A stretch of 2,330 nt of DNA from Naegleria gruberi (lineage: Eukaryota). Below, piece by piece: positions 1-1,314 of the stretch. The translations under genes and the position numbers were made by a program. Every line of letters begins with the position of its first letter. The stretch's first letter is position 1. The stretch is from assembly GCA_000004985.1 (NCBI GenBank), contig GG739269.1. The stretch is one strand, 5' to 3'. The notes beneath the pieces were generated by a model, which was not told the origin of the DNA, did not search any database, and saw only the letters and a program-made list of their open reading frames with translations.

Positions 1-665
1 TATTTGCAGTGGTCTAGGGCCATTTTGATGACAGGTAATTCGACTGCATCATACGCCCCTTCTATATCTAAATTCACTAAAATAAAAGTCCTTTTCCTTG
101 TTTTCATTGCTAAGGCAGAGAGTAATACACCATGATTCAAAGTATTTCTGTCTGTAATAAATGCTTGTTGTCTAACATTAATATGAGTTGATGCCCAAGA
201 TCTCAATCTAAATGCTATAATATTAAATAATATTCTGTAAAATATTGGTAAAATAGTAATTGGGCGAATATCACTTAAGGTATTAATTTCTCTTTTAGGA
301 ATGAGTTTTACCCATCCTTGTTTCCAATTTTGTGGAATATCACCATCTCTTAAACATCTATTATATTCTTCTAAGAGGATTCCTTGATTAGCTTCTGTAA
401 GATGTTTAATTATATCAAGTGAGATTAGATCAGGCCCAGAAGTGTTTGATTTCATTCGTTTGAGAGCATCTTGTAGCTCTTTAATATGAATCGAATTGCT
501 CCAATCTGGACCTTCTTTGATAGTTGAATTACTTGGTGTGAATGTTGGTTGTTGATTAGTGGAGGTAAATTTGTTTGTAAAGTAATCCACTATTTCTTCT
601 TCTTCAAAGTTAAGGTCTTTCCACATAATTTGGTTAGAGTGTATCATTTTATCAAATTGATACAT
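1..665 (-). CDS. Partial CDS (N-terminal 221 aa, 3' end runs beyond window position 1) for a reverse transcriptase of non-LTR retrotransposon (LINE) type. Hand translation gives MYQFDKMIHSNQIMWKDLNFEEEEIVDYFTNKFTSTNQQPTFTPSNSTIKEGPDWSNSIHIKELQDALKRMKSNTSGPDLISLDIIKHLTEANQGILLEEYNRCLRDGDIPQNWKQGWVKLIPKREINTLSDIRPITILPIFYRILFNIIAFRLRSWASTHINVRQQAFITDRNTLNHGVLLSALAMKTRKRTFILVNLDIEGAYDAVELPVIKMALDHCK...
   Basis: Reverse complement of 1-665 translates with no stop codon. ATG is the reverse complement of +663-665, with A at -3. An in-frame TAA lies upstream (reverse complement of +711-713). Recognisable LINE RT motifs: KSNTSGPDLISLDIIKHL (motif 0, consensus K-PGPDGI), NWKQGWVKLIPKRE (motif 1, W--a-i--IPK), IRPITILPIFYRILFNIIAFRL (motif 2, RPISL----K-----RL), RQQAFITDRNTL (motif 2a, QaGFrpGRs) and ILVNLDIEGAYDAV (motif 3, FLDIEKAFDSV). 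The ORF is absent from the supplied track, presumably because it has no stop within the window. Confidence 0.8.
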   Translation of the reverse strand, partial: MYQFDKMIHSNQIMWKDLNFEEEEIVDYFTNKFTSTNQQPTFTPSNSTIKEGPDWSNSIHIKELQDALKRMKSNTSGPDLISLDIIKHLTEANQGILLEEYNRCLRDGDIPQNWKQGWVKLIPKREINTLSDIRPITILPIFYRILFNIIAFRLRSWASTHINVRQQAFITDRNTLNHGVLLSALAMKTRKRTFILVNLDIEGAYDAVELPVIKMALDHCK

Positions 666-678
666 TCTAGATGAAGAG

Positions 679-695
679 TTGGGTTTGGGTTTGGG
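679..695. repeat. Short telomere-like hexamer repeat TT(GGGTTT)2GGG on the + strand, CCCAAA on the strand carrying the RT ORF. It lies 14-30 nt 5' of the RT start codon.
   Basis: Direct reading: ttgggtttgggtttggg at 679-695. Only about 2.5 units. Confidence 0.4.
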
Positions 696-1314
696 AACCT
701 CGGATACCTCTTACTCCAATCTCTTATTGATTTAAGATTTTGAAATTGTTTATTGTTGATACGAATCAGAAGCTTCTTATTGTGACAACACTTGATAGAA
801 GAATGGGAAAGTGGTTGCATTAATTCAACATATTGAAAGTGAACAAGGTTCTCATCTCAAGATTTGGAACTCTTCTTCATGAAGAGGAGGTTATTGGGTG
901 GTGACTAGAGAGAAACATTTCCTTGTAGCTTTTCTACTAGTAAATGATTAATTGACCAAGATGTTGACCTATAATATGGAAACACAATAAAATTCAATAA
1001 TACTGATAAATACAGTAGTGAATATGAATGGTAATTATAAATCACTGAAAAAATCATGATTGGATCCATTTTGAGACTTTTGGAAGTCAACTTGGATGGC
1101 AATAGGGGAGCTTTTGATGTGGTTAACACTTTTAAGGGATCTGAATATTTTATTAGATAATATATGTCATCGTTTTACTTTATCACTAAATGTTGAATAT
1201 CATGATGTTATGACCTATATTTCCAATTTGCGAAATGTTGCAATGTCAATGTTTAATTGAAATATTGCCATCATACCAATAATTGATTATATATTATAAA
1301 ACTGATATTATACA

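Follow-up and report, generated by a model that had tools for sequence, protein, structure and literature searches.

The minus strand of positions 1–680 of the window (the whole 2,330-nt stretch of Naegleria gruberi DNA that was analysed) is very probably the 5' end of an APE-type LINE insertion that is truncated on its 5' side and was dead on arrival. The fragment covers codons 355–580 of a 1228-aa ORF2, comprising the end of the linker between the AP-endonuclease (APE) and the reverse transcriptase (RT) and the N-terminal RT motifs, and continues past base 1. Using blastn, the window (minus strand, 680..1) was found to be 100% identical at the nucleotide level over 680 nt to positions 1277–1956 of L002, a 4083-bp contig that encodes P0155, the uninterrupted 1228-aa ORF2, and with tblastn residues 355–580 of P0155 matched window positions 680..3 at 100% over 226 aa. 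A base-by-base alignment of the junction to L002, in which ORF2 codon 355 starts at position 1277, places the beginning of homology at AACTCTTCATCTAGAATG, with only random-level agreement upstream; homology ends abruptly and the edge of the element lies exactly at 680|681. Among the options of an initial annotation of this DNA was a LINE copy 5'-truncated at about 666–720, in which an internal Met passes for a start codon, and the identity to L002 up to position 680 bears this out and narrows the range to a single point.

The minus-strand ORF opens at an apparent start codon (ATG, 663–665), begins MYQFDKMIHS, and extends for 221 codons without a stop to base 1, where it runs off the end of the window. 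The ATG with an A at -3 (context AGAATGT) and the in-frame TAA at 711–713, which is the next stop upstream and lies in the flanking DNA outside the element, were both found on the minus strand as the initial annotation had described them. In P0155 this codon corresponds to an internal residue, Met360 (IDEFNDNSSSR-M360-YQFDKMIHS), and the junction alignment with L002 identifies five LINE-derived codons (NSSSR; 666–680, minus strand) upstream of the ATG. LINE-derived sequence thus reaches 15 nt upstream of the ATG, to 680, such that the ATG is not the edge of the element. In the family alignment the position is occupied by Met in four proteins (P0155, P0001, P0185, and P0008) and by Ile, Ile, and Leu in P0003, P0006, and P0007, respectively, and Met360 is an ordinary linker residue as opposed to a true start.

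A domesticated or RT-only host gene using this ATG, which had also been proposed, would be compatible with an ORF intact over 221 codons and with the A at -3 of the start codon, but is very improbable given that the DNA is 100% identical to a transposon copy with an intact ORF2, including the 15 nt upstream of the ATG. The candidate gene is therefore neither distinct from transposon copies nor possessed of a start of its own: the Met is internal to the linker, none of the proteins in the 90% identity cluster begins at it, and nothing promoter- or exon-like was identified upstream. Further, with 100% identity no signal of selection is possible yet, so that domestication draws no support from the sequence.

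The SGPD core of RT motif 0 occurs at 429–440 (minus strand; residues 76–79 from the ATG and residues 435–438 of ORF2), in agreement with the spacing of approximately 70 aa noted initially. A match to Pfam RVT_1 at 33–302 (minus strand; E = 3e-8, 34.1 bits against a cut-off of 29.6) corresponds to residues 122–211 of the window ORF and to the first 85 of the 205 profile positions, with the remainder of the RT falling beyond base 1. In a search of the PDB, the 221-aa fragment aligned from motif 0 onward to the RT regions of R2 proteins and human L1 ORF2, with SGPD paired to the PGPD of the R2 proteins, which were the best sequence matches (E = 3.7e-8), slightly above L1 ORF2. The Pfam match, the PDB alignment, and the 100% identity to the ORF2 of L002 all identify a LINE-type RT with motif 0 and motifs 1–3. 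The predicted truncated product is 869 aa.

A word-indexed protein search with the 221-aa fragment returned no match, and an exhaustive HMMER search against 1.8 billion representatives recovered a small, tight family. Two members delimit what is missing from the window: P0001 (1213 aa, 61% identical), in which the fragment pairs with residues 350–569, and P0002 (484 aa), in which residues 276–394 are 99% identical to fragment residues 1–119. Based on these alignments, the relatives possess 230–350 residues upstream of the apparent start. A cluster look-up identified P0002 as EFC44578.1 from N. gruberi and placed EFC49858.1 and other N. gruberi proteins in the same 90% cluster, which consists of five N. 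gruberi members (P0002 and P0151–P0154) on three N. gruberi scaffolds and of P0155 from an ENA contig. As members occur on several scaffolds, the family is multicopy, and the N. gruberi copies are dispersed and often defective, the five including internally deleted and frameshifted copies. The more distant members are Naegleria fowleri proteins. The initial annotation had supposed a yeast-like genome, but the closest named proteins are from N. gruberi, a heterolobosean amoeba. An assignment to the yeast L1 clade (Candida Zorro-like) fails likewise, as all close relatives with a named source belong to N. gruberi or N. fowleri, and no fungal protein was present among the top hits that were looked up. 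The best matches outside of Naegleria were arthropod elements, some of them labelled R1-like, at 26–31% identity. A scan of JGI metagenomes with the RT alignment recovered no relatives, and a literature search found no paper on Naegleria non-LTR families or their clade.

The contig with the intact ORF2 (ENA ERZ929261, PRJEB11402 contig k127_383070) is labelled as metagenomic; its LINE and the window agree at 100% across 680 nt, which indicates that the sample contains N. gruberi or a near-identical strain.

The architecture of the intact protein accounts for the residues absent from the window. In P0155 an AP-endonuclease (approximately aa 1–245) is followed by a linker of approximately 190 aa, the RT, an RNase H domain, and a CCHC motif, and for P0001 and P0155 Pfam assigns Exo_endo_phos_2/Exo_endo_phos at the N-terminus, then RVT_1 and RNase_H. 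For PF14529 the score is above the cut-off of 27.4 bits in P0001 (31.3 bits) and below it in P0155 (22.8 bits). A profile of the N-terminal 250 aa constructed from three members matched exodeoxyribonuclease III (5j8n) over its full extent (E = 3.2e-5) and also a solved chain labelled 'LTX' (2v0r), which we take to be a LINE-1 endonuclease variant. Catalytic-type motifs (NVNGL, TETH, GDLN, SRPDH, and NDH) are invariant in the APE domain of the family. An AP/ExoIII-like endonuclease is thus present N-terminal to the RT in full-length members; a comparison with other copies had been suggested as a check of the truncation, and the APE is contiguous with the RT in P0155 (L002), in P0001 (L001), and in the N. 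fowleri contig L004. An ORF1 lies upstream of ORF2, with 523 aa in L001 and present as a C-terminal piece in L002, in which no recognised domain was found. As judged from these sequences, the full-length N. gruberi element encodes ORF1 and a 1228-aa ORF2 with the order APE, linker, RT, RNase H, and CCHC.

This domain order bears on the last of the initially proposed options, an element in which the RT comes first and a restriction-like endonuclease lies at the C-terminus (R2/R4/NeSL organisation). The slight lead of the R2 proteins over L1 ORF2 in the PDB search and the CCHC motif near the C-terminus of the full-length protein would fit such an element, though it is exceedingly improbable: in full-length copies the same ORF extends upstream into the APE domain, and the similarity of P0155 to R2 is confined to the RT and thumb (residues 415–857). 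It had further been proposed that sequence beyond base 1 be inspected for a PD-(D/E)xK or other restriction-like nuclease. In the full-length ORF2 the RT is followed by RNase H, then by a CX2CX8HX4C motif and only approximately 70 residues, and no PD-(D/E)xK domain was detected in this tail of P0155. The ORF2 of the family therefore departs from restriction-like endonuclease elements (R2/R4/NeSL/CRE) at both ends, with an N-terminal APE and without a detected C-terminal PD-(D/E)xK domain.

The public gene models of the family (L004 4001–6975; L003 879–3260; P0002, P0184, and P0151) are fragmentary: some begin at an internal Met that follows a frameshift, and others splice over internal deletions, with the RT deleted in P0002 and P0184, while P0151 ends in the +1 frame (TLHRECINLIK), which is also the out-of-frame reading of the window ORF at 644–820. 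Two proteins, P0003 from N. fowleri and P0005, were considered as RT-first proteins and rejected, as both lie downstream of APE-coding DNA on their contigs. The annotated 'RT-first' P0003 is a frameshift artefact, and protein entries of this kind are artefacts of annotation.

A full-length relative with defined boundaries was identified in N. fowleri (L004, VFQX01000037.1), where ORF1 and an APE-RT-RNase H ORF2 are present with frameshifts and ORF2 homology starts at the APE domain. Identical 17-bp copies of ATTTTTTTTTGATATTA stand in direct orientation at the two ends of the element (1371–1387 and 6980–6996; chance expectation, ~4e-6) and constitute a target-site duplication (TSD), and only 4 nt follow the ORF2 stop codon, with no poly(A) tail. 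The L004 element is approximately 5.6 kb with a 13-nt 5' leader. The 3' flanks of L002 and L003 also seem to open with ATTT and then a T-run, which suggests a possible unusual preference for the nick site. The N. fowleri family (XP_044565688.1/P0168 and L004) shares with the N. gruberi element the ORF1 and the APE-linker-RT-RNase H-CCHC ORF2, at 42–55% identity in ORF2, and the same linker motif around the Met (MYQFDK/IYQFDK), and its database entries are likewise fragmented 'RT-first' gene models. Species and family differ, and unlike the truncated copy in the window, the L004 copy has its full length and a 17-bp TSD.

By domain composition, the Naegleria elements are APE-type LINEs that possess an RNase H domain. 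The APE-RT-RNase H order and the C-terminal Cys/His motif are shared with the I, R1, LOA, Tad1, and Ingi types, though similarity to any named clade is low, as compared by PDB matches and top hits.

5' truncation is the standard outcome for LINEs, and it best accounts for the window copy. Target-primed reverse transcription (TPRT) would start at the 3' end of the element RNA and fail to reach the 5' end, with synthesis or joining ending at ORF2 codon 355, and the resulting insert is without ORF1, the endonuclease, the promoter, and most of the linker. Met360, five codons inside the element, is the first in-frame ATG left and creates an illusory gene start approximately 70 aa before motif 0; the in-frame TAA further upstream and the frames rich in stops belong to unrelated flanking DNA. 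We infer integration of the window copy by TPRT by analogy with its relatives, as its own 3' end and any TSD lie outside the window. Truncation probably occurred at integration and not by later deletion, and the copy is presumably silent. The 100% identity to L002 argues for a very recent insertion.

The window copy resembles the dead-on-arrival copies of mammalian L1, in which an APE-type element is copied from its 3' end and ORF1 and the endonuclease are missing, and mammalian L1 truncations also share the abrupt breakpoint, with 2 nt of possible microhomology, and the internal Met as a spurious ORF start. Differences from mammalian L1 are the RNase H domain that follows the RT in the Naegleria family, the very short 3' UTR, lacking a poly(A) tail, of the relative in L004, and a heterolobosean amoeba as host.

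Beyond the junction, the flank (696–2330) is AT-rich (~25–34% GC) and not derived from the LINE. No similarity to an endonuclease or a zinc finger was found in 681–2330, in agreement with the initial observation that neither adjoins the RT, and the absence of an endonuclease from the window copy is as expected for a 5'-truncated copy. When full-length family proteins were searched against the window (tblastn), nothing better than E = 0.2 was returned outside of 3–680, and across approximately 1,650 bp of flank there was no similarity to ORF1, APE, or other L001–L003 sequence at either the protein or the DNA level. Neither an ORF >74 aa nor a tRNA nor a credible Rfam match was found in the flank, and scans for tandem and inverted repeats yielded nothing meaningful. 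AT-rich tandem repeats with 19- and 12-bp periods occur at 1279–1348. A stretch of 1.6 kb without an ORF above 74 aa is long for an intergenic region in a genome that is presumably gene-dense, and the flank may correspond to a repeat that has degraded or to a part of the genome with few genes. Multiple stops had been described in all three minus-strand frames of 666–900; this holds for two of the frames, but the third has a single stop at 857–859, with flanking stops at 644–646 and 905–907 and a 58-aa ORF at 644–820.

These properties of the flank are also relevant to whether the 5' part of an originally longer, perhaps full-length copy was removed after insertion, through deletion, recombination, or an unrelated insert of >1.65 kb. 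Only one junction lies within the window, the flank is without recognisable genes and could be another repeat, and the telomere-like tract at the junction (679–695) could mark the repair of a break. Such a secondary loss is nonetheless unlikely, as what remains of the copy matches an intact element at 100% identity, indicating a young copy with little time for secondary events, LINE sequence does not reappear in the 1,650 bp of flank, and 5' truncation is usual for LINEs. An internal deletion could conceivably also have joined an unseen segment of the 5' UTR to codon 355. An assembly chimera, in which a LINE read was fused at 680|681 to sequence of other origin, would account for the abruptness of the junction, and repeats are common sites of misassembly; however, abrupt junctions are expected of truncated LINEs, this one has a 2-nt overlap and a structured repeat as opposed to vector or adapter sequence, and there is no other sign of artefact, making a chimera highly improbable.

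For a truncated insertion, the feature that stands out is the sequence at the breakpoint itself. A telomere-type tract, (TTTGGG)2.8, was identified by TRF at 679–695 on the plus strand, where it reads TTGGGTTTGGGTTTGGG (CCCAAA on the LINE sense strand), directly adjoining the truncated 5' end with a 2-nt (TT) overlap with the LINE homology. The exact 15-mer GGGTTTGGGTTTGGG occupies 681–695, and a match was obtained in none of 200 shuffles of the window with up to 2 mismatches allowed. TTTGGG has been put forward as the telomeric repeat of N. gruberi based on scaffold ends (PMC3622300). The plus strand corresponds here to the antisense strand, the cDNA, so that the G-rich repeat runs on 5' to 3' beyond the 3' terminus of the first-strand cDNA.

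The tract could be an interstitial telomeric repeat that was already in the target, perhaps as part of the TSD. Somewhat doubtfully, it may instead have been absent from the target beforehand and constitute filler added to the 3' end of a prematurely ended first-strand cDNA. Telomerase would extend the cDNA end, or the LINE RT would switch template to a C-rich telomeric or telomerase RNA, and the extended end would then be joined to the chromosome. The addition of filler fits the strand polarity because the G-rich strand continues from the cDNA 3' end, with the 2-nt TT overlap. The two possibilities predict different sequences after the 3' end of the copy: if the tract was pre-existing, that sequence would repeat ...CCCAAACCCAAACCC, with the tract within the TSD, and if the tract is filler the TSD would match ...TCCGAGGTT, without the tract.

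LINEs associated with telomere repeats are known, including TRAS1 and SART1 of Bombyx, as is the insertion of telomeric repeats at repaired breaks. As in TRAS1, a telomere-type repeat adjoins the element in the window, with the C-strand upstream on the sense strand. Compared to TRAS1 and SART1, the window tract is only 2.8 units, interstitial, and visible at one junction, and nothing points to the targeting of such repeats by the Naegleria family, the L004 TSD being T-rich and not telomeric. Two further candidates for an association with telomere repeats were rejected. The sequence AACCCAAAACCCAAACCCA at L003 134–152 was considered as a second CCCAAA junction and regarded as a coincidence, as it lies inside degraded APE coding sequence, where it encodes T-Q-T-H and pairs with the TETH motif (E to Q), and the L003 copy extends further 5'. 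The sequence CCCAAACCC near L004 7959 consists of 1.5 units approximately 1 kb beyond the TSD of that element.

The locus is a routine truncated LINE and not an unusual RT-first or domesticated RT in a yeast, such that the result is mainly a correction, and a truncated LINE copy is in itself already-known biology. For Naegleria, the analysis establishes the full architecture of a LINE family otherwise represented in public databases only by fragmented 'predicted proteins', traces several Naegleria gene models annotated as 'RT-first' to truncation or frameshift, and provides, from the N. fowleri relative, an example of an element with a 17-bp TSD and no poly(A) tail. The tract at the junction is the only unexplained element of the locus and its only point of wider interest; if it was added as filler, it would be the footprint of telomerase or telomeric RNA resolving a LINE integration intermediate in a deep-branching eukaryote.
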